A stretch of DNA of 64,000 bases from a virus (Duplodnaviria > Caudoviricetes), in IMG/VR virus record IMGVR_UViG_3300025357_000008, positions 64,001-128,000 of that record. One strand, given 5' to 3'. This document shows positions 31,571-51,214 of the stretch, piece after piece. How positions within the stretch are numbered: the first letter of the stretch is position 1; each line of letters opens with the position of its first letter. The notes beneath the pieces were generated by a model. It was given only the letters and a program-made list of their open reading frames with translations. It had not been told where the DNA came from and did no database searches. The translations under genes were made by a program, and so were the position numbers.

Positions 31571-33172
31571 ATGGCAAATACAATAGTAAAAATTAAAAAA
31601 TCAGGTGTAACTGGTAACGTACCAGGTTCACTAGCATTGGGTGAGTTAGCAATTAACTATACCGATGGATTATTGTATTTTGCTAATGCTACAGGTGTCA
31701 GAGCATTTTCGGCTAACGACTCAATTCTCGCAAACGCCGCCTTTGCACAAGCTAATGCCGCTTTCAATGCGGCTAATAGCAGTTCAGGTACAGCGGCCGC
31801 TTATAATCAAGCCAATGCCGCTTTTGCTCAAGCAAATAATATTTCTAGTTATGCTAATGCACAGATAGCAATTACACAAGGTGTTGATACAACTCAGAAT
31901 ACAAACATTAGTTCTGCTCAGTTGTTCGCTAACGGTGCATTTACTGCCGCTAATGCGGTTAATACTTACGCATATGCCGCTTATGCATCTCAAAATATTA
32001 CCGCTGGTTTTGCGAATGCCGCCTATACTTTAGCAAACACAGTAAATGTATACTCATATAGTGCATACGGTTTTGCAAATACAATTAACGTTTATGCTTA
32101 TAGTGCTTATAGCGCACAGAACATAACAGCAAGTTTTGCGAATGCCGCTTTCGCTCAAGCTAATGCGGCCTTTAATCAAGCCAATACAGGTTCAAGTTCT
32201 GCACCCGCTTTTAATCAAGCGAATGCCGCATTTATACAAGCAAACAATGCATATAATAAAGCAAATAGTGCTTTAGCAAATACTGGTGGTACTTTAACTG
32301 GTTCTCTAGGTATTACAGGTTCGTCATCAAACATTGTTGTTTCTCAGAGTGCGACAGCAAGTGATGTAACAAACACATTCAATCATTTATATACTTTAGG
32401 TTTATTCTCTGGTAATACCGACCAGTCAATACAAGTTGGTGCACAGAACTTCGCCAACACAGCAAATTCATCTACCGATTTTGCGTTGTACAATAATATT
32501 GGTACCGATACTAATAACTATATTGATTTAGGTATCACAAGTAAAGCATATAATACAACACTAAACGGTTTCACAGCATCACAACCAGGTGACGGATATC
32601 TATATTCTAACGGTGTTAACTTATTACTAGGTACATATACACCTGGTACTAATATGAAAGTGTTTATTGGTGGCTATACATCAGCAAACGTTTCTACAAC
32701 ATTTAATGCACCGAACACAGCATCAAGTTCAAATACTACAGGCACTCTGCTCGTTCAAGGTGGTGTAGGTGTAACTGGTAATGTATACTCAGATAAGATT
32801 TATACAAACGGACTATATTATGCCGCTAACGGTAACCCAATATCAACTGGTGGAGGTGGTGGCACAAGTTTAGTCTATACAGCCGCTACGACACCACCAG
32901 CATCAGGAAATAACAAAGGTGACCAGTGGTACAATACTGCAACTAATGTATTGTATGAATGGGCAACTGACGGTACAAGTTACTTCTGGTTAGACACAAT
33001 ATCACCAGTATATTCAAATACTGCAAACGTAAACATAATTACATCTGGTAATGTTAATACTAATGTGGTCTTTGCGAACTCGGTATATATAGGAACTCAA
33101 AATGCAAATTCATATATACAATCATACATTCAACAAAACACGATACATCCACTAATGTTTGTGGGTCTATAG
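31571..33172 (+). CDS. Fibre protein (Mtd-N-like head, GDQWY module, C-terminal HPLMF motif)
   Basis: VKIKKS...LALGELAINYTDG; heptads; ends IHPLMFVGL-TAG. Confidence 0.72.
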   Translation: MANTIVKIKKSGVTGNVPGSLALGELAINYTDGLLYFANATGVRAFSANDSILANAAFAQANAAFNAANSSSGTAAAYNQANAAFAQANNISSYANAQIAITQGVDTTQNTNISSAQLFANGAFTAANAVNTYAYAAYASQNITAGFANAAYTLANTVNVYSYSAYGFANTINVYAYSAYSAQNITASFANAAFAQANAAFNQANTGSSSAPAFNQANAAFIQANNAYNKANSALANTGGTLTGSLGITGSSSNIVVSQSATASDVTNTFNHLYTLGLFSGNTDQSIQVGAQNFANTANSSTDFALYNNIGTDTNNYIDLGITSKAYNTTLNGFTASQPGDGYLYSNGVNLLLGTYTPGTNMKVFIGGYTSANVSTTFNAPNTASSSNTTGTLLVQGGVGVTGNVYSDKIYTNGLYYAANGNPISTGGGGGTSLVYTAATTPPASGNNKGDQWYNTATNVLYEWATDGTSYFWLDTISPVYSNTANVNIITSGNVNTNVVFANSVYIGTQNANSYIQSYIQQNTIHPLMFVGL

Positions 33173-33181
33173 GGGATATCA

Positions 33182-33511
33182 ATGGCAGTTAATTATAAAA
33201 TTTTAGGACAATCTAATCCGGCCGCTAATACTACCACAACAGTATACACGGTTCCTGCGGCCACTCAAACTGTCGTTTCAACTATTCAAGTTTGCAATCT
33301 CTCACCAAACACATCAAGTTTTTCTATAGCGGCACAAAAAGCAGGTGCATCATTAGCAAACTCAATGTATCTTGCATATCAAACACCAATACCTGGTAAC
33401 GATTCAATCAATTACACATTAGGTGTAACTCTTGGTAATACAGATGTAGTATCTGTTTCAGCAAACACAGGGAACATAACATTCTCTTTATTCGGATCTG
33501 AACTTTCATAA
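33182..33511 (+). CDS. ~110-aa adaptor-like virion protein, copy 1
   Basis: YKILGQSNPAA..VYTVP..TVVSTIQVCN...FSLFGSEL; paralogous to 44461 and 49763. Confidence 0.75.
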   Translation: MAVNYKILGQSNPAANTTTTVYTVPAATQTVVSTIQVCNLSPNTSSFSIAAQKAGASLANSMYLAYQTPIPGNDSINYTLGVTLGNTDVVSVSANTGNITFSLFGSELS

Positions 33512-36500
33512 TGGGAATTAGAAGAGCATCAATTGGTACGACAGCCGAAAGAACGGTTAGAAATCAGAGCATATTGCTACCGACTGGTGGTGCTGTTTCT
33601 ACTGGTATAACAACTGTTGTTTATACTGACAGCAATTATAATACGCTAACTGCTAATGCGGCCGCTACAACATACGGTACGTTTAGAATTTTAGGTACCG
33701 GTTTTTCACCAGGTGCAAATGTTTTGGTAGCTAACACAAGTTCAGGAACCATTGCAAACGTCACATCAAATACAACATATATAGGTGCAACTGAAATTCG
33801 TGCAAACGTAAGTGTGACTGCTGGTAACTACGCATTGTACGTTTTTAATCCTAACGGTTCAGCGGCAATCTATTATTCTGGTGTAACATTTCAACCATAT
33901 CCTGTGTGGACAGCAACGAGTTATGCATCTGCCACTACAGTTTCTGTTCAACTTTTAACATCTTCTACTGCTGTCGAACAGCCTATTACATATTCTTTAG
34001 TATCAGGTACGTTACCTACAGGTACAACATTGGCGGCTAACGGTTTAATTAGTGGTACTGCTACAGGTATTCCTAATGCTGGTCAAACATTCACATTTAC
34101 AGTTGCCGCAACAGACATCTATAATGAAACGACACAGGCATCAATCAGTTTAACAATTACGGTAGCTGATGCATATTTTGATTACACTACATTGTTGTTG
34201 AATGGTGAGACTAATTCGAACACTTATATACAAGATGCCGGTGCAAATAATTTTACGCTAACCCCATATGGTTCTTCAACATCAAATAGATTCAGCCCTA
34301 TGTGGGGCGATGGTTATTATGGTAATTCTTTTGATGGTAGTTCTGGGTTTTTAATAACAGCGGCCAATTCTATTCTTGCACCTTCAGCAGATTTTACAGC
34401 AGAGGCTTGGGCATACACTACAATTAATAATAACTTTCAAGGTATAATGAGTACAAGAGATTCCGGTTCAACAACAGGTTGGGGAATCACAATAAATTCA
34501 TCAGGATACTTAGAATTTGTTTGTACTGGTGCAACAGCATATACAGGTACATTAGCACCTTTAAACAGATGGTTTCATGTTGCAATGTCAAAAGTCGGAA
34601 GTACTGTATACTGTTATTTGAATGGTGTTCAAGTTGGAACTTTACCAAGTTCGCCGGCAATTAGCTACAATAGTCTTGGGTTAAGTCTTGGTAGATACTA
34701 TAGTAACGGTAGTAATCAATATTGGTTAAATGGTTATATTAGTAATGCACGTTATATAAATGGAACCGGCATATACACAGGAAGTAGTTTTACAGTTCCT
34801 ACAACACCATTGACAGCGATTGCAAATACTGCTGTCCTAACTTGTCAATCAAATAGATTTATTGATAATGGTCCTAACGGATTGGCAATAACACCGTCAG
34901 GTACAGTTAAAGTAGTACCTAATCAACCATTTGGTTCAATACCAACAACATCAACAGCAAATACAAACAATACTGGTTACTATAGTGCTCAGTTTGATGG
35001 TAGTACGGGGTATTTAAATCTAGGGGGTCAATCGACATTTGCATTTGGCTCTAATAGTTTTACTATTGAGGCTTGGATATACCCATTAACCGCTAGTCAA
35101 ACATCTGTTATAACTGATTTTAGACCCTCAGGAGGTAGCGGAGTATATCAATTATTTTATTTAAATTCAGGTGCTTTAACTTATTGGGTAAACGGCACAG
35201 GTGTTATTGTAGGAAGCTCGCCAGTTGCTGGCGTATGGAGCCACGTTGCAGTAGTAAGGAACGGTACAAGTACAATTATGTATTTAAATGGTGTTCAAAC
35301 AGGTTCTACGTATTCAGATTCTAATAGTTATCTTAATGGCGCCAACGCTCCAGTAATTGGAGGTTTAGGCTATACGAGAGGCCAAAACATTTTTAACGGC
35401 TATATTTCTAACTTTCGTATTGTTAATGGTACCGCAGTATATACTTCAAACTTCACCCCACCGACCACACCACTAACAGCAGTTACAAATACTTCTCTAT
35501 TAACATTACAAAATTCTGTTATTGTTGATAACTCTGCAAATGCATTTACTTTGACACCGACTGGTTCAGTTATAGTATCTAAGAATCAACCATTTGCTTC
35601 ACCGACAGTTACAAGTAATACTATAACACCAAGTGTTTATGGTAGCGTATTGCTTGATGGATCAACAGGATACATGCAAGTACAAGAATCATCTAATCCT
35701 GCATTTGCACTTTCAGGTGATTTTACAATTGAATTGTGGTATTATCCAACAGGTACATCAGGTGGTTACATATACGCACAAACTGTAAGTGGTACAAATT
35801 GGTGTATTATTGGTGCAAGTACTACAACATTAACTGCCGCACAATTTACCGCAACAACGAGTGGTGCTGGCACCGCACAGAATAGTGCGGCAGTTGGAAA
35901 TCCATATTCATGGAATCACTTAGCAGTTTGTAGAAAAAGTGGACAAGTAACTGTCTACTTAAATGGTGTTGGTGGTACATCAGTTACAAATACAACATCA
36001 ATACCATCAACATACTTACCAACCATTAGCGGTTATTCACATTCACAAACAGGTTTATTTGCTGGTTATATTTCAAACATTAGGGTAATTAACGGTACCG
36101 CAGTTTATACGAATAACTTTATACCCCCAACTAGCCCACTAACAGCAGTTGCAAATACATCAGTATTATCATTGCAATATAAAAATTCAGCAAATAACAA
36201 TGTGTATTATGATGACAGCCCAAATAATTTAGTAATTTCTAGAACAGGCATTCCAACACAAGGTACATTTAGCCCATTTAGTCCAACAGGATGGAGTAAT
36301 TACTTAGGTGGTTCTGGTTACTATATTGTTTCAAATTCAACCCCAATATCAACAACAACTTCAACATTCACTATTGAAGGTTGGATAAACATGTCGGCAA
36401 CGCCAGGAGGTTCTGCAAATCCTGCTTTGATTGGTGACATGAACCCAACTGCGGGAACTTGTAATTGGAGTTTTGGACCTAATAACTCAAACGTTTTAGA

Positions 36501-38154
36501 ATTATATGTTGTTGGTGGAACATCTTATACTATTACCGGAAACACAGTAATGTCTTTAGGTACTTGGTATCATGTTGCTGTTTCGGTAAACTCAAATTCA
36601 GTTTCAATGTATGTAAATGGTGTACAGCAAACATTAACTGGCGGCTCGACAATTGTAAATAGAAGCGGTTCTATAGGTTATTTGACTATGGGACAATGGA
36701 ATAGCGGTTCATTTAATTACGCCGGATATGTTAGTAATTTAAGAATATCGAATGTCGCATTATATTCTTCTTCATTCACACCAAGCACAGCACCATTAAC
36801 TGCAATATCTAGTACAGTATTTTTGACTGCCCAGAATAATGGTTTTGTTGATAACTCGACAAACGGGTATAGATTAACTGCAACACAAGCCTCTGTTCAA
36901 GCAGTTTCACCTTTTGCACCAGGCGTCATATACAATCCAGCAGTACATGGGGCAAGTTCATATCACTATAGCGGAAATTATATTTATGGTAGTAATCAGA
37001 TATTCAACGTAAGTAGTCCATCAATGCAATGGCAATTTGAGTGTTGGGTTTATCCAGTAAATCAATCATTCTTCTTTTGTATTGGTAACGGTGGTGCGTA
37101 TGGAAATTCATTCAATTGCGGATTTCAAGGTAATCAATTTACTTTTACTCAGGGTAATGGCAGTAATGGAACAGTAGCAACTCTTAATTCAACAACAAAT
37201 ACTTATAATTATAATCAATGGTATCATTTTGCGATAACTAAAAACGCATCAGGTGTTATTACAATGTGGGTTAATGGTACTTCTCAAGGTACTGTAACTA
37301 ATACATCAGGAACTGCCGCTTCAGGCACAACATTTATTATTTGTGGATTATATGATAATGGTGGATTAGGTTATAGTGGTTTCAGCGGTGGTTCATTTGT
37401 TAGTTATTTTAGTATTGCTAACCCGAGATTTATTGCCGGTGCTCCAATTTATACATCTGCATTTACACCACCTACTGCACCTGTAACTGCTGTTGCGAAT
37501 ACAGCATTGCTATTGAATTTTACTAACACAGGTATTCAAGATGCTACAGGTAAAAATAATATTATAACTTATGGTTCTGCAAAGACTCAAGCAAACACAA
37601 CTAAGTTTGGAACTGGTGCATTGTATTTTGATGGTTCAACTGGATATTGTTCATTCCCTAATGCATTTCCAACCAGCCCTTATTTAAATCTTGGTTCAAA
37701 TAATTTTACAATTGAGTTTTGGTTATATCCTATAACTTTTTCAAATGGTAGTGCATTTTTAACTAAAGGATGGACCGGAAGTTATGGTTCATTTTTGTTT
37801 TATTATTACAACAATACAACACCTCAAATTTATTTTTACGCAGGCTCAAATAATTCTGCATGGGATATTGTAAATGGTGTTTCGATAAATTCAAATTTAA
37901 GTTCAAATACTTGGACACATATTGCAGTAACTCGTTCAGGTAGTAACTTTTATTTGTTCTCAAATGGTGTTTTAACCAATACTGTAACGTCATCGGCTTC
38001 AATATATAACAGTACTGCACCGGTAACAGTCGGTGGTGATAACTCTGGAGGTCATTTATCTAATTGTTATATTGACGATTTAAGAATCACAAATGGTGTT
38101 GCACGATATACATCAACCTTTACCCCAACATCATTAGCTTTTTTAACACAATAA
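33511..38154 (+). CDS. Multi-domain LamG/ConA-like receptor-binding protein A (Ig-like N-terminus, about 6 LamG domains)
   Basis: Six FT(I/A)E.W.Y-like...W.H.A...NG...YI(S/D)..R units; YSLVSGTLPTG..L..NGLISGT Ig motif. Confidence 0.82.
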   Translation: MGIRRASIGTTAERTVRNQSILLPTGGAVSTGITTVVYTDSNYNTLTANAAATTYGTFRILGTGFSPGANVLVANTSSGTIANVTSNTTYIGATEIRANVSVTAGNYALYVFNPNGSAAIYYSGVTFQPYPVWTATSYASATTVSVQLLTSSTAVEQPITYSLVSGTLPTGTTLAANGLISGTATGIPNAGQTFTFTVAATDIYNETTQASISLTITVADAYFDYTTLLLNGETNSNTYIQDAGANNFTLTPYGSSTSNRFSPMWGDGYYGNSFDGSSGFLITAANSILAPSADFTAEAWAYTTINNNFQGIMSTRDSGSTTGWGITINSSGYLEFVCTGATAYTGTLAPLNRWFHVAMSKVGSTVYCYLNGVQVGTLPSSPAISYNSLGLSLGRYYSNGSNQYWLNGYISNARYINGTGIYTGSSFTVPTTPLTAIANTAVLTCQSNRFIDNGPNGLAITPSGTVKVVPNQPFGSIPTTSTANTNNTGYYSAQFDGSTGYLNLGGQSTFAFGSNSFTIEAWIYPLTASQTSVITDFRPSGGSGVYQLFYLNSGALTYWVNGTGVIVGSSPVAGVWSHVAVVRNGTSTIMYLNGVQTGSTYSDSNSYLNGANAPVIGGLGYTRGQNIFNGYISNFRIVNGTAVYTSNFTPPTTPLTAVTNTSLLTLQNSVIVDNSANAFTLTPTGSVIVSKNQPFASPTVTSNTITPSVYGSVLLDGSTGYMQVQESSNPAFALSGDFTIELWYYPTGTSGGYIYAQTVSGTNWCIIGASTTTLTAAQFTATTSGAGTAQNSAAVGNPYSWNHLAVCRKSGQVTVYLNGVGGTSVTNTTSIPSTYLPTISGYSHSQTGLFAGYISNIRVINGTAVYTNNFIPPTSPLTAVANTSVLSLQYKNSANNNVYYDDSPNNLVISRTGIPTQGTFSPFSPTGWSNYLGGSGYYIVSNSTPISTTTSTFTIEGWINMSATPGGSANPALIGDMNPTAGTCNWSFGPNNSNVLELYVVGGTSYTITGNTVMSLGTWYHVAVSVNSNSVSMYVNGVQQTLTGGSTIVNRSGSIGYLTMGQWNSGSFNYAGYVSNLRISNVALYSSSFTPSTAPLTAISSTVFLTAQNNGFVDNSTNGYRLTATQASVQAVSPFAPGVIYNPAVHGASSYHYSGNYIYGSNQIFNVSSPSMQWQFECWVYPVNQSFFFCIGNGGAYGNSFNCGFQGNQFTFTQGNGSNGTVATLNSTTNTYNYNQWYHFAITKNASGVITMWVNGTSQGTVTNTSGTAASGTTFIICGLYDNGGLGYSGFSGGSFVSYFSIANPRFIAGAPIYTSAFTPPTAPVTAVANTALLLNFTNTGIQDATGKNNIITYGSAKTQANTTKFGTGALYFDGSTGYCSFPNAFPTSPYLNLGSNNFTIEFWLYPITFSNGSAFLTKGWTGSYGSFLFYYYNNTTPQIYFYAGSNNSAWDIVNGVSINSNLSSNTWTHIAVTRSGSNFYLFSNGVLTNTVTSSASIYNSTAPVTVGGDNSGGHLSNCYIDDLRITNGVARYTSTFTPTSLAFLTQ

Positions 38155-38157
38155 ATA
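38150..38157 (+). promoter_or_regulatory. Late promoter core AATAAATA overlapping a stop codon
   Basis: TAAATA at the gene boundary; SD AAGGAG follows. Confidence 0.6.
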
Positions 38158-38180
38158 GAACATAAAAGGAGAAAATTGAG

Positions 38181-38576
38181 ATGAGTCATTTTGCACAGAT
38201 AGATGCTAACAACATTGTTACCAGAGTTCTTGTCATTGAACAAGACATGGTAAACACTGGTCTATTTGGAGAGCCTAATACCTTCATTCAGACCTCATAC
38301 AATACAAGAAACGGTATTCATTATGATCCTGTTACAGGTCAAGAAGACAGCGGTACTGCATTGAGATATAGATATGCTGGTATCGGTATGGTTTATGACA
38401 GAGCAAATGACGTTTTCGCATTACCAAAACCAGAAGGTATGAACAGTTGGGTTTACTCAAGCAACACATGGGCTTGGAAACCTCCTGTTGACATGCCTAC
38501 AGATGCAGTACCACCAAATTATTACAGATGGGAAGAGTCTAACACTTCTTGGATTCTAATAACAGTAACACAATAA
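38181..38576 (+). CDS. Phage protein, possibly fibre-tip associated or an assembly chaperone
   Basis: MSHFAQID, IQTSYN, RYRYAGIG..YD...DVF..PKP..SW...W..PV.MP. Confidence 0.7.
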   Translation: MSHFAQIDANNIVTRVLVIEQDMVNTGLFGEPNTFIQTSYNTRNGIHYDPVTGQEDSGTALRYRYAGIGMVYDRANDVFALPKPEGMNSWVYSSNTWAWKPPVDMPTDAVPPNYYRWEESNTSWILITVTQ

Positions 38577-38577
38577 C

Positions 38578-38910
38578 ATGGCATTTCCAACCTCACCCAC
38601 TAACGGTCAAACAGCAGTAGTAAATGGTATTTCATATACCTATAACTCTACGACTAATTCGTGGGGAAGAGTTGCTCAAAGTGTCCGAATCACATACACA
38701 GCGAGTCCTACACCACCTACAAATCCACTTCAAGGTGACCAGTGGTACAATAATACGACTGATGTGCTTTACGAATACACAAACGATACCGTTTCATCTT
38801 ATTGGTTAGACATACAGACACCAGCATTTGTTGGTTCAAACGCAACAACAGTTACAGGAGTATCGACAGGTAAATCACTTGCTATGTCGGTATTATTCGG
38901 AGCACAATAA
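38578..38910 (+). CDS. Short linker protein (FP..P.NGQ head, GDQWY module, GKSLAMSVLFG tail)
   Basis: Modules shared with 43900, 45711 and 31571. Confidence 0.7.
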   Translation: MAFPTSPTNGQTAVVNGISYTYNSTTNSWGRVAQSVRITYTASPTPPTNPLQGDQWYNNTTDVLYEYTNDTVSSYWLDIQTPAFVGSNATTVTGVSTGKSLAMSVLFGAQ

Positions 38911-39260
38911 TGACAACCCCTAATCTAGTTCAAATCAATTATCTAAACGGCAATACAGCAGTACAAAACGTTACGACAACTGCAACTGCTATTATTTCAA
39001 ATGCAAATAATTCAAATCAATTGTTTAGAATTGACAGTTTAGTTGTTGCAAATTATTCTACGAACGTTCAATATATTACCGCAGACATATACAGAAACAA
39101 TGTACCTTATATTATTGTTTCAAATATTTCAATGCCGGCAAATACAACCTTCGGTGTCTTTGATAGAATCTTCTATGCAAATGAAGGTGATGCAATTCGT
39201 CTAACAGCAAGTAACAACGGCACACTTCAAGCAGTTGCAACATACGAGGTAATGGGTTAA
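38910..39260 (+). CDS. ~115-aa adaptor-like virion protein, second class (TPNLV head)
   Basis: IDSLVVAN...NEGDAIRLTA...TYEVM; same size and cassette position as 33182. Confidence 0.7.
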   Translation: MTTPNLVQINYLNGNTAVQNVTTTATAIISNANNSNQLFRIDSLVVANYSTNVQYITADIYRNNVPYIIVSNISMPANTTFGVFDRIFYANEGDAIRLTASNNGTLQAVATYEVMG

Positions 39261-42200: not shown

Positions 42201-43873
42201 TTGCAACTATTTTTAGTGTTGAAGCAAATGGTTTAGATGGAGTATTCATTGGTATAAATGGTACAAATACTCCTACTATGCAACCTGTGATGTATTTGTC
42301 AACTACCGGCGGTTCTTATACAGGTAATGCAAATCCTGGATTATTTTCAACAACATTGTCGTTGAATAAATGGACACACATTGCTTATGTACGTAACGGT
42401 AATGTATTTTCTTGTTACATAAACGGTGTACAAGACCCAACAACATTTATATTACCAGGTGCTTTATCATACAATTCTAGTTGCAATGCAACTGTCGGTG
42501 CAAGAGCGGCTAATGCTGGTAACTATTTCCCTGGTATTTTAAGTAATGTTAGAGTAATTAATGGTACGGCACTTTATACCAGTAATTTTACACCATCAAC
42601 AACACCATTAACAGCAGTTGCAAATACTGCATTATTAACTTGTCAAAGTAATAGATTTATAGATAATTCAAACAATACTTTTACTCTAACTCAACCTAAT
42701 GGTGGTGTGCAAGTTGAACCGTTTTCACCATTTCCACCAGGCGTAACGTACTCAACCGCAAACAATGGGGCGTCATTGTATTTTAGTAGTTCAAGTGACT
42801 CTGTTGTACAAGGTTCAACTACTGCTTGGGTATTTGCTGGTGATTTTACAATTGAAGGATGGTTCTTTTTCATGCCTTCAGGTGCAGGAACTTCTAGAGC
42901 GTTTGTTAATACCTCAGGCGGTAACATGTATTTGAATACCGATAATACATTACACTATGTGTTTCAAGGCGTTACAGATTTTGGTAGTTCTCAAACAGTA
43001 AATGCAGGACAATGGGTTCACCTAGTTGTATGTCGAAACGGAGGAACTTATAGATTCTTCGTAAACGGTAACATGACTACAGGTACAGGCAGTACAGCAT
43101 CTATAGGTGCAACAGGAGGAATAAACGTAGGAACAGCGAGTGCGTTTTATGCTTACGGTGTTAAAATTTCAAATGGTGTTTCATTATATAATTCTTCTTT
43201 TACGATTCCAAACTCATTGACTACAGTTGCATCAAACAATTCTTTGGCACTATTAGGTACAAATTCAGGTATTCAAGATGTTACTGGTAAAAATGATATT
43301 ATAACATATGGTTCTCTGAAAACACAAGCCAACACAGTTAAGTTTGGTAATAATTCAATGTATTTTGATGGTAGTACAGGTTATGCTTTAATACCAAACT
43401 CAGCATTTATGTTGGTCGGTTCTAGCAATTTTACAATCGAATATTGGTTATACCCAACAACATCAACGACTCAAAGTCCATTCATGTTAAATGGAAATGG
43501 ATCTGGCTATGGTATACGAGCAGATATAGTTGGCACTTCAAATTACGTACAATTATTAGTTTCGACAAGTGGTAGTTCATGGGCTATCAATTCGACAAGT
43601 AGTACAGCAGTATCACTTAACAGTTGGTCGCATATAGCGATAGTGAGAAACGGAACTGCTATGACGGTTTATCTCAATGGAAATAGCATTATTAGTACCA
43701 CGATATCCGGTTCTATTGTATTAGGAACTATTAATTATGTTGGTGCATCATATTATAGTAGTGCGCCAGTTTACTTTTTTAACGGTTATATGGATGATTT
43801 TAGAATTACGAATGGTATTGCTAGATATACCGGTAACTTTACTCCACCAGCCTTTCAATTTTTAGGTCAATAA
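39260..43873 (+). CDS. Multi-domain LamG/ConA-like receptor-binding protein B (IPT and Ig-like N-terminus, about 6 LamG domains)
   Basis: GGETIVIYGSGF IPT motif; six FT(I/V)E units; scaffold collinear with 33511. Confidence 0.82.
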   Translation: MFNGGFKGVRAADGAGFVSARDVAVQQSSPQPKITSWAYTNGAYVPYPDTAIAGGETIVIYGSGFQSNANVVIGGTTITSTRLDPNRITFTAPSLSAGSYPLYVANPGGGTAVYLPGVVYNSYPVFNSTSYANTFVSATTSVGFSLNVTGSPSLTFSLQSGSSLPTGLTLAANGYISGSTTVSNTTVYNFTVIATDSYAQATQASITYTITYVISDTYFNSTTLLLNGETNTNTYIQDISTNNFALTPIGAATPNRFSPLWGNGYYGVDFFYGGFQTPASSLTNITGSFTSTSTFTIETFVKMNALPASTGVNLVGDMQVTSTLNYWSFQINTSGQLQLYWYNGSVQTAVGNTVMVPGSWYHVAVSISSGAIKLFVNGVLQTITGTTTTSTPTGSTSYISVGEYNSYGFNGTLSNLRISSTALYSTTFTAPTSPLTSQANTTFLSCLSNQFSDIGPNSYALTLSSTPKVVASQPFATLPTTSTANTNGQGYYSGAILGGSNLLTYPTSLNLGTAPFTIEFWFYISNLGNSGIYFLYDYINNSSRWTVQWNGPGWAIGHYDGGSWIYTATSTSSVTLGQWTHLAITRDSSSTMRVYVNGVLGATTANFTRNFTNSGSSKTILNDPTGDGTATGFMSNLRIVNGTALYTGSSFTPSTTPLTAVAGTTMLTLQNSTFIDNSANNNVFTPTGLPYVSQNQPFASPTVTSNTITPNIYGSGYLDGSTGYLTTPAGSYADFGSNAFTVECWIYTTVTSTQQVIAFHGWSGSGGYNNGWNLQINTSNQIAFYANGTLVAFTDLVISPNNWTHIAVVGSGGVLSAYKNGIKSTVTNTYTSIVARATATTVLGGWNNTNENIAERYWYAGYISNFRIVNGTALYTNTFLPPNQPVTPISNTQLLSLQYKNSANNNVFYDDSVNNWPLTRTGAATQGTFTPFTQTGWSNYFDQGIGGFISTPGNPTQLQLGSNNFTVECWFFMTAAPTWSVATIFSVEANGLDGVFIGINGTNTPTMQPVMYLSTTGGSYTGNANPGLFSTTLSLNKWTHIAYVRNGNVFSCYINGVQDPTTFILPGALSYNSSCNATVGARAANAGNYFPGILSNVRVINGTALYTSNFTPSTTPLTAVANTALLTCQSNRFIDNSNNTFTLTQPNGGVQVEPFSPFPPGVTYSTANNGASLYFSSSSDSVVQGSTTAWVFAGDFTIEGWFFFMPSGAGTSRAFVNTSGGNMYLNTDNTLHYVFQGVTDFGSSQTVNAGQWVHLVVCRNGGTYRFFVNGNMTTGTGSTASIGATGGINVGTASAFYAYGVKISNGVSLYNSSFTIPNSLTTVASNNSLALLGTNSGIQDVTGKNDIITYGSLKTQANTVKFGNNSMYFDGSTGYALIPNSAFMLVGSSNFTIEYWLYPTTSTTQSPFMLNGNGSGYGIRADIVGTSNYVQLLVSTSGSSWAINSTSSTAVSLNSWSHIAIVRNGTAMTVYLNGNSIISTTISGSIVLGTINYVGASYYSSAPVYFFNGYMDDFRITNGIARYTGNFTPPAFQFLGQ

Positions 43874-43876
43874 ATA
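43869..43876 (+). promoter_or_regulatory. Late promoter core AATAAATA overlapping a stop codon
   Basis: Same CAATAAATAGAA context as at 38150. Confidence 0.6.
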
Positions 43877-43899
43877 GAAGATAACTCAACTAAGATATC

Positions 43900-44451
43900 A
43901 TGTCATTTCCAGTCGCAACATCAAACGGTCAAACAGCATTAGTTAACGGCATTACGTATGTCTGGAACTCTTCTATTGGCACTTGGACTCGCCAACAGGC
44001 TTACCTTGGTCAAATAATTGTTTCTAATACTGCGCCGTCAATTAACGTTGTCGGTACTCAATGGTATTCTCAGACTGACGATGTTATCTATGAGTGGACT
44101 ACAAGCAACGGAAGTAACTTCTTCTGGTTAGATATCTCATCTTCTGCGGTAGTTTCAAACGTTGCGTTGACACCATTTCTAACAAGTACTATTGCAAATA
44201 GCGCAAACACATTTGCCAATACAGCAAACGCATTAGTTCTTGCTCAAGAAACGCTTTCAACGGCAAACGTTTCAAATTACGCAAATAATGTTGTCGCAAA
44301 TTTAGCAAACGGTATATATGCATCGGCAACATTAAATGTTAATTCTGTTAATGCAAATACATTGAGTATCGGAACTCAAAATGCTAATACATACATATTA
44401 TCATACATGCAACAAAATTCTTTCAACCCATTCTTCTTAGCGGGAATGTAG
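43900..44451 (+). CDS. Linker protein (FP..NGQ head, QWY module, NPFFL tail)
   Basis: C-terminal IGTQNAN.YI.SY.QQN segment shared with 31571; ends in TAG. Confidence 0.7.
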   Translation: MSFPVATSNGQTALVNGITYVWNSSIGTWTRQQAYLGQIIVSNTAPSINVVGTQWYSQTDDVIYEWTTSNGSNFFWLDISSSAVVSNVALTPFLTSTIANSANTFANTANALVLAQETLSTANVSNYANNVVANLANGIYASATLNVNSVNANTLSIGTQNANTYILSYMQQNSFNPFFLAGM

Positions 44452-44460
44452 AGGTACATT

Positions 44461-44790
44461 ATGCCAATAAAATACAGAACATTAGCCCAATCAAATCCTG
44501 CCGCAAATACACCTACTGTAATCTATACAGTACCGGCAAATACACAGACTGTCGTTTCAACATTTCAAGTCTGTAATCAAAACGTAAATGCGGCATCTTT
44601 CTTTATTTCAACGCAAGTTGCTGGTGCATCATTAGCAAACTCTCAGTATGTTGCTTTCAACACAACAGTACCAGGATACGACTCAATTTCATTTACTATT
44701 GGTATGGCTTTAGGTAATACAGATACCGTAACAGTTCAAGCCAATACACCTAACGTTTCATTTGTAATGTTTGGATCGGAAATAACCTAA
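44461..44790 (+). CDS. ~110-aa adaptor-like virion protein, copy 2
   Basis: YRTLAQSNPAA..IYTVP..TVVSTFQVCN...FVMFGSEI. Confidence 0.75.
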   Translation: MPIKYRTLAQSNPAANTPTVIYTVPANTQTVVSTFQVCNQNVNAASFFISTQVAGASLANSQYVAFNTTVPGYDSISFTIGMALGNTDTVTVQANTPNVSFVMFGSEIT

Positions 44791-45707
44791 TGGCAGTTAA
44801 AAGAGATTCTCAAAACTCTGTTAAGAATAGAACAATCTCTGCTATCAATAGTGGTGGTGGAGGTGGTTCTACCACATCAACTACATATCAAATTCGTTAC
44901 TTAGCAGTAGCTGGTGGAGGTGGAGGTGGTTACGCACCAGGATCACCAAAAACTACAGTTGGTGGAGGAGGTGGTGGTGGCGGATTTTTACAAAGTCAAG
45001 CACTTTTAACTGTTGGTGTGCCTTATACTATAACAGTTGGTTCCGGCGGTAATAGAACACCATCAGCATGTGGTGCACACGTAGGAGGTACTGGTTCAAA
45101 CTCAACTATTTGTGGATCGGGATTTTCAGTAACTGCATATGGCGGTGGAGGTGGGGGTGCCGGTCCTGCAGTTGCTGGTACACCAGGTGGTTCTGGAGGT
45201 GGTGGAAATAGTTTAGGTGGTACAGGCGTATCGGGTCAAGGAAATCCTGGTGTTGCATGTTTTTTTCTAGCACCAACAAATCCTGGTTGTAATTATGGAA
45301 ATGGTGGAGGAGGTGGCGCAGGTTCACCAGGTTTTAAATTTCCTGCAACAGGTTTTACATCACCGACTGTTTATGGTGGTGGTCAAGGTGGCTACGGTGC
45401 AATAAGCGATATTTCAGGAACTGTACAATATTACAGTTGTGGTGGTGGTGGTGCATCTGTAAATAATGGCGTTACAGCAACTGGTGGATATGGCTTATCT
45501 ACATATGGAACTGGCGGCCCTGGAAGAAGTACACCAGTAACAGGTTCAGTAGCTGGTTCACCAGGTATTGTAATTATTTCATATGTAAGTCCGACACAAA
45601 AAGGTACAGGCGGTACGGTAACTTCTTATAGTCCGCCAACATCACCTTCAACAGTCATACAGGTTCACACATTCTCGTCAACTGGAACGTTTACGTATAC
45701 AGGATAA
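44790..45707 (+). CDS. Glycine-rich putative adhesin, paralog 2
   Basis: YLAVAGGGGGG, YTITVGSGG, GIVIISY, VHTFSSTGTF motifs. Confidence 0.72.
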   Translation: MAVKRDSQNSVKNRTISAINSGGGGGSTTSTTYQIRYLAVAGGGGGGYAPGSPKTTVGGGGGGGGFLQSQALLTVGVPYTITVGSGGNRTPSACGAHVGGTGSNSTICGSGFSVTAYGGGGGGAGPAVAGTPGGSGGGGNSLGGTGVSGQGNPGVACFFLAPTNPGCNYGNGGGGGAGSPGFKFPATGFTSPTVYGGGQGGYGAISDISGTVQYYSCGGGGASVNNGVTATGGYGLSTYGTGGPGRSTPVTGSVAGSPGIVIISYVSPTQKGTGGTVTSYSPPTSPSTVIQVHTFSSTGTFTYTG

Positions 45708-45710
45708 TAA

Positions 45711-46217
45711 ATGGCATTTCCAACAAACCCAACAAACGGTCAACAAGCATCACTCAATGGTGTACTGTATACCTACAACTCAAACTTTAATGCTTGGAAG
45801 AAGACACAAAACGTTGCGAATATTTACACCTCAACGCAACTGACAAACTTCACAAACATATTTGATTTTGATGACGTTTCATATCTAACTGACGGTTTCA
45901 CAAATACATTTCCTTTGAGATGGAATGGTTCACCTGTGACTTGTAACTCACCTTTTACTATTTCAGTAACTGTTAATGGTATATTACAGCCTGCTTTCGA
46001 CTACAAATACGACACAGTATGGTTAGCAAATATACTTACAGGTTCAAAAGGTTACACAATTGACCTTTCAGGTAACCCAACAACTAACGGATACCTTAAG
46101 TTTGCCGATTCAGTACCGGCAGATTCACAGATTTTAGTGAGAACGGTTCTAGGTTCACCTCAAACCTCAATAAAGACGTACCCATTCAAGCCGCTTGACG
46201 TAGTAATGGGTTTTTAA
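45711..46217 (+). CDS. Virion protein with FPTNPTNGQ head
   Basis: N-terminus paralogous to 38578 and 43900. Confidence 0.65.
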   Translation: MAFPTNPTNGQQASLNGVLYTYNSNFNAWKKTQNVANIYTSTQLTNFTNIFDFDDVSYLTDGFTNTFPLRWNGSPVTCNSPFTISVTVNGILQPAFDYKYDTVWLANILTGSKGYTIDLSGNPTTNGYLKFADSVPADSQILVRTVLGSPQTSIKTYPFKPLDVVMGF

Positions 46218-46221
46218 GATA

Positions 46222-46229
46222 GATAAATA
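46222..46229 (+). promoter_or_regulatory. Late promoter core GATAAATA
   Basis: Intergenic; SD GGAG before 46272. Confidence 0.65.
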
Positions 46230-46271
46230 TATGATTGTTACCAAACATCCGAATAACTGGAGAAACTAATA

Positions 46272-49200
46272 ATGGCAAGAAAAGTCATCCTTGATACGTA
46301 CTACACGTTCATACCATCATCTAGAACGATTATTATACCGCACGTTGTACCTAAAGAACGTCTAGTTTTAATTACTGACTTGACAACAAATCAGGTTATT
46401 TTTAACTTCTCAGACCCTAACTTAACTACAACTGCATACACTATCGGTCTTGATACGACTGGTAATTATCCTAATGCGACCGTTACGACTGTTTCTTTAG
46501 CGTATAATACGACAGCACTATCTGCTACAGATAAGTTAAGTATTGTAGTTGACGAATACAATGAGTCATTTCAGCCTTCTGAGACTCTATTAGATCCAGT
46601 TAACAAACTAAGAGTTTCAACACCACAGTCTTTGATTGATACCGACTTTGAGTATTCAACACAAGCGACTAAGTGGGAATCTCTTTCTCGTACCAATATG
46701 AGACCGTTTTCATATTATATTACTTCAACAGGTAACCTAAACTTAATCGACTTACAAGCAGTTAACGGCTCAAGAAGTTTCACAGCAAATACAACAGGTT
46801 CAACACCACCAGCAGTTGGAACACCAATCACAATTTTAGATTCATTGTACGCTGGTGCTGACGGTAACTATGTTGTAGATTCAAACAACAACCTGACAAA
46901 CACAAACGCTTCAGGTGCCGCTAACACATTCTCATATACTGGTAAATTCTATTATACTGGTACAACAGGTACGATTTATAATCAAAACGTAACAATTGGT
47001 TATCAAGGTTATGCATTTACAAACTCTGCAATCACAATTGCAGGTATGACAACTTCTGGTCAAAACGTATTTGTAACTACAGCAAATGCTCACGGCTTTA
47101 TGCCTGGTAATGAAATTGCAGTTACTGGTGTGACAGGAACAAACCCACCAAACGGTTCATGGGTTGTTTCAACAATTATTAACCCATACAACTTCGTATA
47201 TCAATGTAACGCATCTTCAATACCTTCTGGTACAATGACAGTATCAGGTGCATCTTTATATGCAAGACCAGTCGGTACTCTAGTACATCGTTCATTTGAC
47301 GGTGGTATTCGTTTCTCTACAAACTCTGGTTCACACAATCAGCAGTTTATTCGTCAGACACGTAAGTATTTCCGTTATCAATCTGGTAAGGGTATTCAGT
47401 TGTCAACTGGTACAACATTGCAACCACAGTTTAACTTAGACGGTATCACATCAAGCGGTACAACAGTTACAGTTACAACAAAAGACCCACACAATATTTC
47501 TGCTTCAATCGGTATTCAAATCGCTGGTTGTAACGAAGCGGCATATAACGGTAACTTTGCAATCACAAACGTATTGAACCCATATCAGTTCACATATACA
47601 GCAAACTCTGTACCAGCAAATTCACCTGCATCTGGTAACTATGTTTGTTCTGCAACAACATGGTATGGTTCTTCAAATCGTATCGGTATCTTCGATGACC
47701 AAAACGGCATGTTCTTTGAATATGACGGTTCTCAATTATATGCAGTAAGACGAAATGCGGTTTATCAGATTTCCGGTAACACTTGGATTAATGCTGGTTC
47801 AAATACATTAAACGGTAACAATACAATCTTTACTAAGCAGTTACAACCTAATGATTTTATTGTAATCAAAGGTATGCCACACCGTGTACACAACATTCTT
47901 ACAGACTCTGTATTGACAGTTGTACCAACACTACGTGGTACTCAGAACGTCAACTCTGCTGTTATTAGTAAAGTTCAAGACGTTAAAACACCAGTTTCAC
48001 AGTTTAACATTGATAGATTAGATGGAACAGGTCCTTCAGGTTATAAGATTGACTTGACAAAAGACCAAATGTTCTACATCGACTATTCATGGTACGGTGC
48101 TGGTTTTCAACGTTGGGGTGTTCGTGGACCTGATGGTAACGTAATATATGCACATAAAGTAATTAATAATAACGTTAACTATCTTGCTTACATGCGTTCA
48201 GGTAACTTACCTGGTCGTTATGAAACTAATTCTTTCTCTAAGACTTCTGTTCTAACAGCAAACGTTGCACCAACAGATACAACAATTACGATATCTAATG
48301 CAACTGGATGGCCAAATACCGGAGTAGCAGTAATTAGAAATACCTCTAATACTGAATACTTTGCGTATACAGGTATCACAGCACTTTCAAACGGTGCCGC
48401 ACAGTTAACAGGCGCTCAACGTGGTGCCGCTTATCAAACGGGTAACACTGGTAATACATTGTATGTAACAACAGTTGCTGGTAATAATATTGTAACTATA
48501 CCTGCAAGTAACACAACATATGGTTTGTCAAACGGTATGTACGTGTTTGGTCCTAACATTGCACCACAAACGTTTATTCAGAACATTGTTGCAAACACAT
48601 ATATTGTGTTGAATCAAGCACCAACTGCTTCTGGTAACTCGGCAGTTATTATTCCACCATTAGCAAACATTGCACAAACAGTTGTTGTATTGTCTGCAAC
48701 TGGTGCTAACTCATTAACATACACTGGTAACAATCAAGGTGCTGTAGTTCCAACTGCTGTTGAGTTACATGCGCCATTATACGGACCTGAGATTAACCAT
48801 TGGGGTACTTCAGCAATTATGGATGGCGGTTTCACACCAGATAAATCGTTCATTTTCTCAAAAGGTATGCAAACACCTTTAACAATTTATCCAGCCGGTG
48901 GTGCCGCTAACACAATGGCTCTTTGGAGTTTCCGTGTTGCGCCTTCTGCATCAAACGGTATACCAGCTTCTGCTCTTGGTGTTCGTGAGATTGTTAATCG
49001 TATGCAACAATTACCATTTGAACTTGATGCCTATTCTAACGGTGCTTGTTTGATGACTCTTGTATTGAACGGTAGCGTTTCAAATACAACAGCACAATGG
49101 CAAAACGTTGGTGGTTCTAGTTTGTCTCAATATGTTTTCCATGCACAGAATACAACAGTATCTGGTGGTGAAACAGTTTTCGGATTCTTCTTGAATAACA

Positions 49201-49406
49201 ACTTAGGAACATTCGGTTCAACTCAAAACGATTTGACACAATTGCTTTCACTTGGTACAAGTATTCAATCTGGTGGTGTTGCAAATACTGGTGTCGGTAT
49301 CTATCCTGACGGACCTGACGTATTGACACTTGTTGCTACGAACGTATCATCAACGAACCTTGCAAGTATCTTAGCTCGTTATTCATGGACTGAAGCTCAA
49401 GCGTAA
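46272..49406 (+). CDS. Large virion structural protein
   Basis: 1044 aa; DPVNKLRVSTPQSLIDTDFEY, RQTRKYFRYQSGKG, HWGTSAIMDG motifs seen in T4-like virion proteins; two VTT..HG/HN beta modules. Confidence 0.7.
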   Translation: MARKVILDTYYTFIPSSRTIIIPHVVPKERLVLITDLTTNQVIFNFSDPNLTTTAYTIGLDTTGNYPNATVTTVSLAYNTTALSATDKLSIVVDEYNESFQPSETLLDPVNKLRVSTPQSLIDTDFEYSTQATKWESLSRTNMRPFSYYITSTGNLNLIDLQAVNGSRSFTANTTGSTPPAVGTPITILDSLYAGADGNYVVDSNNNLTNTNASGAANTFSYTGKFYYTGTTGTIYNQNVTIGYQGYAFTNSAITIAGMTTSGQNVFVTTANAHGFMPGNEIAVTGVTGTNPPNGSWVVSTIINPYNFVYQCNASSIPSGTMTVSGASLYARPVGTLVHRSFDGGIRFSTNSGSHNQQFIRQTRKYFRYQSGKGIQLSTGTTLQPQFNLDGITSSGTTVTVTTKDPHNISASIGIQIAGCNEAAYNGNFAITNVLNPYQFTYTANSVPANSPASGNYVCSATTWYGSSNRIGIFDDQNGMFFEYDGSQLYAVRRNAVYQISGNTWINAGSNTLNGNNTIFTKQLQPNDFIVIKGMPHRVHNILTDSVLTVVPTLRGTQNVNSAVISKVQDVKTPVSQFNIDRLDGTGPSGYKIDLTKDQMFYIDYSWYGAGFQRWGVRGPDGNVIYAHKVINNNVNYLAYMRSGNLPGRYETNSFSKTSVLTANVAPTDTTITISNATGWPNTGVAVIRNTSNTEYFAYTGITALSNGAAQLTGAQRGAAYQTGNTGNTLYVTTVAGNNIVTIPASNTTYGLSNGMYVFGPNIAPQTFIQNIVANTYIVLNQAPTASGNSAVIIPPLANIAQTVVVLSATGANSLTYTGNNQGAVVPTAVELHAPLYGPEINHWGTSAIMDGGFTPDKSFIFSKGMQTPLTIYPAGGAANTMALWSFRVAPSASNGIPASALGVREIVNRMQQLPFELDAYSNGACLMTLVLNGSVSNTTAQWQNVGGSSLSQYVFHAQNTTVSGGETVFGFFLNNNLGTFGSTQNDLTQLLSLGTSIQSGGVANTGVGIYPDGPDVLTLVATNVSSTNLASILARYSWTEAQA

Positions 49407-49753
49407 TGCAAACAGCCGCACAACTTCCAGTATTACCGGTAGTATCTGAGAATACTACCTTTTACATGTCTGTTCAACCATCAACGCAAGTTGGTGGTAA
49501 AACAAGTTATGAGTTTGCGGCTACTTCATTAACATTTAATCCTTCAACAAATGTAGTAACGATGAATGTGCTTTCGACTTTAACACTCAATGCATTTACA
49601 TTAAATGCAGTCACATTAAATGCGGTTACTATGAATGTTACATCGAATTTATACACTGGTTCAATTAATATTTCGACAGGCTCAAACGTATTTGTAGGAA
49701 CAACAAGGGTTGAGTCTCAGATACCTCATCCATTTTTACTATCGTTTTTGTAG
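49406..49753 (+). CDS. Short linker protein ending in HPFLL
   Basis: LTFNPST motif; pentapeptide TLNAV repeats; ends IPHPFLLSFL-TAG. Confidence 0.68.
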   Translation: MQTAAQLPVLPVVSENTTFYMSVQPSTQVGGKTSYEFAATSLTFNPSTNVVTMNVLSTLTLNAFTLNAVTLNAVTMNVTSNLYTGSINISTGSNVFVGTTRVESQIPHPFLLSFL

Positions 49754-49762
49754 GAACAACTC

Positions 49763-50086
49763 ATGTTATCATATAGAGTTTTAGGTCAAGCAGTACCAGG
49801 AACAACAAATACCACATTGTATGCGGTATCGACTGGTGCGAATACTATTATTTCATCAATTCTAATTGCAAACCAAGGTGCTTCTCTCGCTACTTATCAA
49901 TTAGGTGTTGTACCTAACGGACAAACACTTTCAACAAAAAACTATATTGCTTATAGTGCAAACGTGCCAGCAAACGATACAATGACATTAACACCAGGTA
50001 TTACAATGGGTGCAAATGATGCTATTGTATGTTATGCTAATAATTCATCTGTTTCATTCTCAGTATTTGGTTGCGAAATATCATAA
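49763..50086 (+). CDS. ~110-aa adaptor-like virion protein, copy 3
   Basis: YRVLGQ..P....LYAV...TIISSILIANQ...FSVFGCEI. Confidence 0.75.
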   Translation: MLSYRVLGQAVPGTTNTTLYAVSTGANTIISSILIANQGASLATYQLGVVPNGQTLSTKNYIAYSANVPANDTMTLTPGITMGANDAIVCYANNSSVSFSVFGCEIS

Positions 50087-50101
50087 CAAAGGTGCATTGT
50101 T

Positions 50102-51214
50102 ATGGCAGTTATTAAAACAAAAAGACTCAGCACAAAAAATGTTGCCAACTTAGCCGATTCAAGTAAAAGCAGATTATCAGCATCTTGTATCAATAATACA
50201 TCAACAGCATATCCTGGCGGTCCCAGTGGAAGTACCGGTCCTGTAGGTGTTCCATTAACGTTTGTGATTGTTGCGGGTGGTGGTTCTGGTGCACAACGTT
50301 GGACTGGTGGTGGTGGAGGTGGTGGTGTTATTGTTGGTGCAGTAGCGGCCGCATCAAAAGGAACACCCTACGCAATAACAGTTGGTGGTGGAGGTGCCGC
50401 ACCTGTTTATCCAACAACCATATGTTATGCTTATACTTTCCGAGGCGTTAACTCAAGTGCATTTTGTGTTACAGCAATAGGTGGAGGTGGTGGTAAAGGT
50501 TATAGTTGTTACATACCAGCTCCTACAGGGGGTTGTGTAGCACCAGGTGGTTCAGGTGGCGGTGGTGGTGGACCTACTGGTCCTCCAACAGGTGTTGCAC
50601 CATTCCCTTATGCGAACAACCAAGGCGGTTCAGGTACTCAACCAGGACAACCAACACCATCCGGACCTGCTATAGTTTGGACCAATTACGGTAATCCAGG
50701 TGGTAATTATAATGGTGGAGGTGGTGGTGCTTCATCATCAGGATCAACAAGAACATTTACAGGAACTCCACAATTTCCAACACCAGGGAGTGCAGGTGGT
50801 TCCGGTCTGACCGTTTCAATAACAGGAAGTCCTTTCATCGTAGCTGGTGGTGGAGGTGCTGGTGGACGTTATGGTGCAACTCAACCACCTAACGGTTTCG
50901 TAGGAGGCCCTGGTGGTCCTGGAGGTGGTGGTAATGGTTCAGGTTATGGATGTGCATACCCAAGATTGGGAAGTCCGACACCATTACCAGGACAAAATGG
51001 CGGTACTAATACTGGAGGTGGAGGTGGTGCAGGCTCATGTAGAGCACCTATAACTCCTAGTATAGGTGGTGCAGGAGGTTCTGGTGTAGTGTATGTTTCT
51101 GTTCCAACTCCATTAGCTGGAACTGCTGGTCCGCCAAGCGTATTTACAAGTGGACCTGATGGTGCTGGAAATACATGGTTTAAGTTTACGAGTTCTGGTA
51201 CTTATACTGCTTAA
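50102..51214 (+). CDS. Glycine-rich putative adhesin, paralog 3
   Basis: IVAGGGSG, NTGGGGG, GGSGVV; C-terminus nearly identical to that of 26874. Confidence 0.72.
   Translation: MAVIKTKRLSTKNVANLADSSKSRLSASCINNTSTAYPGGPSGSTGPVGVPLTFVIVAGGGSGAQRWTGGGGGGGVIVGAVAAASKGTPYAITVGGGGAAPVYPTTICYAYTFRGVNSSAFCVTAIGGGGGKGYSCYIPAPTGGCVAPGGSGGGGGGPTGPPTGVAPFPYANNQGGSGTQPGQPTPSGPAIVWTNYGNPGGNYNGGGGGASSSGSTRTFTGTPQFPTPGSAGGSGLTVSITGSPFIVAGGGGAGGRYGATQPPNGFVGGPGGPGGGGNGSGYGCAYPRLGSPTPLPGQNGGTNTGGGGGAGSCRAPITPSIGGAGGSGVVYVSVPTPLAGTAGPPSVFTSGPDGAGNTWFKFTSSGTYTA

Follow-up and report, generated by a model that had tools for sequence, protein, structure and literature searches.

Four three-gene cassettes in the genome of an uncultivated phage probably each encode one multi-piece tail fibre, in which a small jelly-roll protein forms the joint between the shaft and an exchangeable tip. 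The cassettes lie between positions 31571 and 51214 of a 64,000-nucleotide stretch (the window), which corresponds to positions 64001-128000 of the 170,261-bp genome in IMG/VR record IMGVR_UViG_3300025357_000008. The source phage is T4-like and of cyanophage type, and its genome carries 24 transfer RNA (tRNA) genes. Within the window, T4-type baseplate genes are followed by a long series of fibre genes, on the + strand throughout. Each cassette comprises, in order, a fibre gene (linker), a gene for a protein of ~110 residues (adaptor, A1-A4), and a gene for a putative receptor-binding protein (tip). An initial annotation, made from the sequence of the window, had described four such units, and all 12 open reading frames (ORFs) were confirmed with their starts, ends and terminal peptides. 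A hidden Markov model (HMM) scan of the whole genome (413 ORFs) retrieved only three adaptors of one sequence class (type I: A1, A3 and A4) and one of another (type II: A2).

In the arrangement we propose, the product of the first gene would be the virion-proximal part of the fibre, consisting of an anchoring head, a shaft of variable length and a hydrophobic hexapeptide at the C terminus. The ~110-residue jelly-roll protein would be a virion component that docks on this hexapeptide and bears the receptor-binding protein at the far end. That distal partner would either be fused to the C terminus of the jelly roll, as in many other phages, or be held by a short basic/Ser-rich peptide at its own N terminus, as in the window. 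Since the joint is conserved and the shafts and tips are variable, tips of unrelated folds would be exchangeable between phages. This phage would have two sequence classes of the joint side by side, distinguished by their tail and tip-start motifs. We infer the direct contacts of the adaptor with tail and peptide, as well as the specificity of the two classes; the adaptor itself is probably trimeric.

Judged by sequence, A1, A3 and A4 are clearly homologous, A3 sharing 61% and A4 34% identity with A1. When 1.84 billion representative proteins were searched with a profile, the type I family came to 4,671 representative clusters at E ≤ 1e-3 and 2,177 at E ≤ 1e-10. Close A1 homologues of 108-113 residues number 435, and A2 homologues eight. 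Most family members are 108-113 residues long, the remainder being tandem doubles or fusions, and the family spans myo-, sipho- and podophage-sized genomes. Among phages of differing genome sizes, alignment columns average 64-66% identity, a degree of conservation that would suit a protein-protein joint more than a receptor binder. All three type I adaptors match positions 1-110 of the 325 in phrog_1276, a family of unknown function (E 1.7e-10, for A1, to 3.3e-7), and A3 and A4 also match positions 117-214 of the 380 in phrog_11338, annotated as 'tail fiber protein'; A2 has no match in PHROGs. No match was returned by Pfam for the four small proteins at E ≤ 0.1, chaperone families (Tfa/Caudo_TAP and similar) included, or by PDB sequences for the adaptor profile. 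A literature search with the tail motif strings and jelly-roll fibre adaptors found nothing relevant. The family has no Pfam entry, solved structure or described function.

Several family members (P0003, P0021, P0028 and others) carry the Joint Genome Institute (JGI) label 'glucose-6-phosphate dehydrogenase assembly protein OpcA', which looks like an annotation error propagated through similarity. Two further members, P0156 and P0160, consist of the adaptor domain and an N-terminal signal-peptide-like segment, and nothing more; they may be secreted cellular or prophage forms.

The genes on either side of the adaptor were surveyed by script in 80 retrieved viral loci, 74 of them non-redundant. 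The upstream ORF ends in [FL][LM]L[MGA]G[AMG] in 62 of the 69 assessable cases, compared with 31 of 1,544 (2%) for the other ORFs of the same loci, and three further upstream tails are off the pattern by one or two extra residues only. All four cassettes of the window have a hydrophobic tail of the ..LLMG[AGM] type (TGKAIAM.IVFG in type II), with off-consensus variants in linker 1 (..PLMFVGL) and linker 4 (..PFLLSFL). Around a near-invariant Gly, positions -3 and -1 of the tail nearly always hold exactly one large hydrophobic residue, arranged as M-G-A/G or G/A/S-G-M (64 loci); Met never occupies both positions, and small residues almost never do. Such a pattern suggests a defined binding site for the extreme C terminus. 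Hydrophobic tails are also found upstream in gp23 of the Pelagibacter phage HTVC010P (..ALAIALG) and ORF26 of the Synechococcus phage S-SCSM1 (..PFILALGGN). The distinct type I tails of the window (..PLMFVGL, ..PFFLAGM and ..PFLLSFL) are kept by orthologous cassettes in relatives, which fits cognate pairing but also plain vertical descent.

On the downstream side, a basic/Ser start is present in 33 of 63 genes, as opposed to 136 of 822 in the background, and two other recurrent starts take in 15 more. The tip gene mostly begins one base before the adaptor stop ends (gap -1), an overlap that suggests coupled translation. Within the window this takes the form of a TAATG overlap in cassettes 1-3, with a 15-nucleotide gap in cassette 4. 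The same triad occurs in the siphophage phiPsal1 and in Caudovirales ct2KA10. Tail, small protein and tip start are thus found together in many unrelated phages, bearing out the co-occurrence across phage genomes that had been anticipated. In phiPsal1 (a Pontimonas phage; locus L001), an unannotated 298-residue Gly-rich ORF at 6349-7245 directly follows the adaptor homologue, and the short annotated coding sequences phiPsal1_022 and _023, which lie inside it in other frames, are probably miscalls.

Adaptor and tip are also found as a single chain. Many phages carry the adaptor as the N-terminal domain of a longer protein, the remainder of which is Gly-rich, IPT/Ig plus Gly-rich, LamG-like, RCC1 or collagen-like. 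These fused proteins lack the basic/Ser peptide, and the last strand of the adaptor runs directly into the next domain. In loci L083, L085 and L108, a fibre gene ending in ..FLLMGA, ..FLLMGA and ..FMLMGA, respectively, comes first and fused adaptor-tip genes follow in tandem, each directly 3' of the fibre gene or of another fusion after that fibre. Therefore, the tail goes with the adaptor domain, and the peptide is needed only where the tip is a separate chain. Adaptors at the C terminus of other proteins are rare, and their partners are not fibre-like. Because nearly all fusions join adaptor to tip, the small protein is better seen as a detachable docking domain of the tip than as a neutral coupler. 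The initial annotation had proposed a coupler of ~110 residues between a hydrophobic C-terminal plug and the N-terminal peptide of the tip; the co-occurring tails and tip starts and the fusions uphold a coupling role, but not its neutrality, and the 'plug' is a guess at the geometry.

The tips that follow one and the same adaptor class are of unrelated folds, as had been claimed for the window, and include Gly-rich, LamG, collar, collagen-like and RCC1 proteins. Tips 1 and 2 each contain six repeats of PF13385 Laminin_G_3 (E 3e-92 and 2e-104; 307 and 347 bits, cut-off 27.6), and tips 3 and 4 match PF21722 Gly_rich_2 (E 2.8e-12 and 1.2e-6; 47.6 and 29.2 bits, curated cut-off 24.3). In related contigs the identical protein P0003, 82% identical to A1, sits between linkers of 218, 319 or 320 residues and LamG tips of 1301, 1539 or 1812 residues, with head, tail and tip start constant. 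For the protein P0239, no contig was found. A quick maximum-likelihood tree of 64 adaptors requires at least 15 changes of the coarse tip class, compared with ~24 for shuffled labels; the count is only indicative because a tree of 109 residues is weak.

The type II class shows no detectable sequence similarity to type I: A2 scores E 1.4 with an HMM of the three type I sequences and reaches hhalign probabilities of 1.3% and 0.3%. It is therefore linked to type I by predicted fold only. In three other lineages (L089/L090, L092 and L093/L094), type II adaptors follow tails of the form TGKAIAM[AS]IVFG[GF], the counterpart of which in linker 2 is TGKSLAMSVLFGAQ; in L093/L094 the tail-bearing gene and the adaptor are separated by a Gly-rich gene. 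The tip begins with MFN[GS]G and basic residues in two of the three lineages (L089 and L093), and the third has a Gly-rich tip with a different start. None of the type I loci surveyed has either the type II tail or the MFN[GS]G start. The expectation that motif classes would covary across genomes thus holds between the classes, each of which retains its own tail and tip motifs, type II doing so in three other lineages.

Both adaptor classes are predicted to adopt the same type of fold. The AlphaFold2 (AF2) model of A1 is an eight-strand jelly roll with a predicted local distance difference test score (pLDDT) of 92.1 (34 sequences), and that of A2 is a similar eight-strand sandwich with a disordered 12-residue N terminus and a pLDDT of 80.6 (eight sequences). 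The two models retrieve the same ~110-residue viral proteins in BFVD, several of which are named 'virion (structural) protein' (S-SCSM1, S-TIM5 and MaMV-DC). Their top PDB chains are also shared, namely the KHP40 cement protein, nucleoplasmin cores, the HFTV1 turret and Ena subunits, at Z 8-10. On the basis of these common neighbours, the two classes would be two branches of one structural family. Foldseek found nothing in the PDB at E ≤ 1e-3.

The best structural matches are small trimeric or oligomeric jelly rolls: KHP40 cement (7dou; Z 10.0 and 9.2 for the A1 and A2 models, respectively), the HFTV1 turret (8qpg; 9.2 and 8.0) and the Ena spore appendage (7a02; 8.4 and 8.3), aligned at a root-mean-square deviation of 2.6-3.6 Å over 93-102 residues. 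Ena subunits join through a terminal peptide. We draw no functional link to these three proteins, because jelly rolls are very common, the Z values are barely above the usual best for models without relatives, and identity is 5-13%. Neighbours of the TNF/C1q type (APRIL, Z 6.9-7.0; CD40L, 6.8; C1q, 6.7-7.1) score below the cement, turret and nucleoplasmin matches.

Evidence for a place in the virion comes from other phages. In S-SCSM1 the gene order is ORF26 ('long tail fiber protein'), ORF27 (112 residues) and ORF28 ('tail fiber protein', starting MQARKRFFSGRETS). ORF27 matches both adaptor HMMs weakly, and its template modelling (TM) score to both models is 0.83-0.86. It is labelled 'virion protein' in GenBank, and Table S1 of the S-SCSM1 paper gives it only a hypothetical-protein match. 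Mass spectrometry of particles purified on caesium chloride identified 45 virion proteins in this phage, 13 of them of unknown function (PMC9602691). As Table S1 offers no homology-based function, the label presumably stems from this virion proteome. HTVC010P gp24, a 'virion structural protein', matches the type I HMM at E 6e-5; the basis of its label was not traced.

Several observations weigh against a joint of this kind. The virion evidence consists of a remote homologue (bit scores 15-17) and the reading of an annotation label. As modelled, the adaptor has a generic jelly-roll fold (best PDB Z 10.0), from which little can be deduced about function. Among the downstream genes, 15 of 63 have neither the basic/Ser nor another recurrent start. 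Within type I, adaptor columns show no clear covariation with the tail subtype (..xGM or ..MGx), the best mutual information, 0.30 over 64 related rows, being uninformative. Contact between tail, adaptor and peptide was neither seen directly nor predicted: a prediction, with alignments, of the complex of three A3 chains with three 45-residue tails of linker 3 gave a score of 0.01 (mark, 0.32) and, being without controls, speaks neither for nor against binding. Finally, a Gly-rich paralogue of tips 3 and 4 with a Ser-rich start has neither an adaptor gene nor an FLLMGA-type tail before it, so the adaptor is not obligatory for this type of tip. The paralogue occupies 26875-27908, with a likely ATG at 26875 just past the stop of a 1512-residue fibre gene; it starts MSRISSSS, and its C terminus, ..GNTWFKFTSSGTY, is nearly the same as that of tip 4.

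The small protein might instead be a tail-fibre assembly chaperone, aiding the folding and trimerisation of the upstream fibre end or of the downstream tip and then released or loosely kept; lambda/P2 Tfa, T4 gp57A/gp38 and Pam3 gp25 are models for such a role. Chaperone genes usually sit directly after a fibre gene, which is where the small gene is found, and hydrophobic tails and Gly-rich domains are plausible clients. The β-sandwich domain of Pam3 gp25 holds a Gly-rich fibre tip with 3:3 stoichiometry (PMC9608196). However, the adaptor gene precedes the tip gene rather than following it, and its product is often permanently fused to the N terminus of the tip, lacks the helical trimerisation domain of gp25 and has no Pfam match at all. 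The remote S-SCSM1 homologue is labelled as a virion protein, and another conserved small gene, encoding the phrog_7759 protein, could serve as helper. With these points taken together, we regard a chaperone as unlikely.

A jelly roll at this position could also be the terminal knob of the upstream fibre, that is, a cap or receptor binder resembling TNF or C1q, in which case the Gly-rich and LamG proteins would be separate fibres elsewhere on the baseplate. Structural neighbours of the models do include the C-terminal domain of the Bd2133 fibre, APRIL and C1q (Z 6.8-7.3), the signal-peptide forms exist without a tip, and the gene is near the end of the tail module in phiPsal1 and HTVC010P. Yet the family is strongly conserved by the standards of receptor binders, adaptor and tip genes appear to be coupled in translation, and fusions at the N terminus of tips are common, whereas those at the C terminus of other proteins are rare and not to fibre-like partners. 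A knob is accordingly improbable in our judgement. Covalent joining of linker and adaptor by read-through of the linker TAG stop was considered as well, given that, of the four TAG stops in 36 window genes, three terminate the type I linkers, 9 nucleotides upstream of the adaptor ATG and in frame with it; in-frame spacing of whatever length is somewhat enriched elsewhere (33 of 69 loci). This is very improbable, and we rejected it: in the relatives L100-L102 the TAG is followed by 10 nucleotides and is out of frame, stops across the loci are TAA in 56, TGA in nine and TAG in four with gaps of -8 to 34 nucleotides, and none of the 24 tRNAs of the genome is a suppressor. Since the spacers begin GGGGA, AGG or GGAA, the G of TAG may instead extend the ribosome-binding site.

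If the small protein is a joint between shaft and tip, it could further be a branching point, either because the three identical tails of a homotrimeric fibre end take up to three different adaptor-tip units or because an adaptor oligomer takes three different tips. We hold this to be quite doubtful, though there are hints in its favour. In L083 (899-6474) and L085 (3-5599), exactly three consecutive adaptor domains come after one collagen-like fibre (..FLLMGA); Gly-rich tips are fused to two of them, and the third is a free protein that has a tip of its own. In ct2KA10 one adaptor precedes three proteins with a common N-terminal peptide, and in HTVC010P a single adaptor occurs together with three paralogues whose starts are alike. 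Branching, if true, would equip one fibre, or the fibre set of one virion, with receptor-binding proteins in combinatorial mixtures.

Multi-piece fibres with small connectors, docked Gly-rich adhesins and adaptors for exchangeable spikes are all known kinds of system. The T4 long tail fibre (gp34-gp35-gp36-gp37) is built from separately encoded segments, and its small connectors are encoded between the shaft genes, at the junction. The cassettes resemble it in having a segmented fibre with a small connector protein, but no sequence match emerged (the adaptors have no Pfam hit), and the connector here would be a single jelly roll of ~110 residues, often fused to the tip, that is used with the conserved hexapeptide at the C terminus of the fibre. 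In phages of the K1-5/SP6 type, with a gp37-type adaptor, and in CBA120 and G7C, which have branched spikes, different receptor-binding proteins, or several of them, can be mounted on one virion through a conserved adaptor. The adaptors of those phages are larger proteins located on the tail or baseplate, with other domains, and we saw no homology. The gp38 of T2/S16-type phages is a separate Gly-rich adhesin that docks on the end of the gp37 fibre by its N-terminal part and sets host range (PMC9608196). It is likewise a separately encoded Gly-rich adhesin on a fibre end, but it docks by its own short helical domain rather than by a separate or fused jelly roll that also bears LamG, collar and collagen-like tips. 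In cyanophage Pam3, the fibre protein gp24 has a Gly-rich receptor-binding domain, which the β-sandwich partner gp25 binds 3:3; gp24 is a single chain that docks on the baseplate by helices, and gp25, encoded after it and equipped with an extra helical domain, is said to leave before maturation (PMC9608196). The likeness to the cassettes is the Gly-rich fibre domain with a β-sandwich partner; the position of the gp25 gene after gp24 and the helical domain set Pam3 apart. The Gly-rich tips of the window found nothing meaningful among PDB sequences.

Coordinates of the cassettes and of the genes that accompany them are collected in the Table. At the DNA level, the 20-kb region has no match in cultured phages (megablast). 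Its near relatives are metagenome contigs of 60-167 kb, and tblastn with A1 found three records. Linker 3 has a near-orthologue in locus L003, and linker 2 weakly matches the PHROG annotation 'L-shaped tail fiber protein assembly' (E 3.6e-4).

Table. Genes of the four cassettes and associated features, in window coordinates
Feature	Position	Strand	Description
Linker 1	31571..33172	+	533-residue fibre shaft; KKSG..GELAINY head, Ala/Asn-rich repeats, GDQWYN..LYEW..FWLD; C-terminal tail ..IHPLMFVGL
Adaptor A1	33182..33511	+	109 residues, predicted type I jelly roll
Tip 1	33511..38154	+	1547 residues; start MGIRRASIG; IPT/Ig-like region, then six Laminin_G_3 repeats
phrog_7759 protein	38181..38576	+	131 residues, unknown function; heads cassette 2; MSHFAQID..-type start
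Linker 2	38578..38910	+	110 residues; MAFPTSPTNGQ head; GDQWYN..LYEY..YWLD; tail ..TGKSLAMSVLFGAQ
Adaptor A2	38910..39260	+	116 residues, predicted type II jelly roll
Tip 2	39260..43873	+	1537 residues; start MFNGGFKGVRA; six Laminin_G_3 repeats
Linker 3	43900..44451	+	183 residues; MSFPVATSNGQ head, short Ala/Asn-rich shaft, tail ..FNPFFLAGM
Adaptor A3	44461..44790	+	109 residues, type I
Tip 3	44790..45707	+	305 residues, Gly-rich; start MAVKRDSQNS; phrog_2295
Virion structural protein (phrog_5838)	46272..49406	+	1044 residues; leads into cassette 4
Linker 4	49406..49753	+	115 residues; tail ..IPHPFLLSFL; start overlaps stop of the 1044-residue virion protein gene
Adaptor A4	49763..50086	+	107 residues, type I
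Tip 4	50102..51214	+	370 residues, Gly-rich; start MAVIKTKRLS
Linker TAG/adaptor ATG junctions	33170-33184, 44449-44463, 49751-49765		Type I cassettes

Two further genes accompany the cassettes. The phrog_7759 protein ahead of linker 2 may be an assembly helper; look-alikes, recognised by eye, lie beside the adaptor module in the unrelated phages phiPsal1 (L001, 7245-7625) and ct2KA10 (L002, 9878-10264). The 1044-residue protein ahead of linker 4 shares ~40% identity with proteins annotated as 'virion structural proteins' in T4-like Synechococcus phages, among them S-PM2, S-RSM4 and Syn1. S-PM2, reached through this protein, has no cassette at that locus, and a similar-looking protein directly follows an adaptor in locus L045.

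Scans for sigma-70 promoters and terminators gave chance-level results only. The word ATAAATA, which is the core of T4-type late promoters, occurs in the short gaps ahead of the phrog_7759 gene, linker 3 and the 1044-residue gene (38151-38157, 43870-43876 and 46223-46229), so cassettes 2, 3 and 4 may each be transcribed late as a unit of its own. Counted over the whole window, ATAAATA shows no over-representation. Elsewhere in the fibre cluster, four ORFs end in D[GN]GxF (19982-20206, 27911-28132, 28160-30970 and 31000-31566), and three of the four precede fibres with a ..KRS..P..L..GELA head, linker 1 included. The D[GN]GxF end and the GELA-type head look like a second end-to-head motif pair. 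Outside the window, ARAGORN located a permuted gene resembling that of transfer-messenger RNA at genome positions 48673-49034, with the tag ANDELFALAA.

Set against the known kinds of fibre, the cassettes stand out by a protein family that has not been described and by a conserved tail signature of very few residues, which recur together in thousands of aquatic phages and across very different genome sizes. Tail fibres determine which bacteria a phage can infect, and fibre genes are unannotated in most marine and freshwater phages. A C-terminal ..FLLMGA tail, then a ~110-residue jelly-roll gene whose stop is overlapped by a tip gene, make up a short signature that is easy to recognise and would flag the receptor-binding genes of uncultured phages in their thousands. 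The joint would also account for the passage of structurally unrelated tips from phage to phage, and would offer a natural, compact connector for host-range studies in laboratory phage-host pairs.

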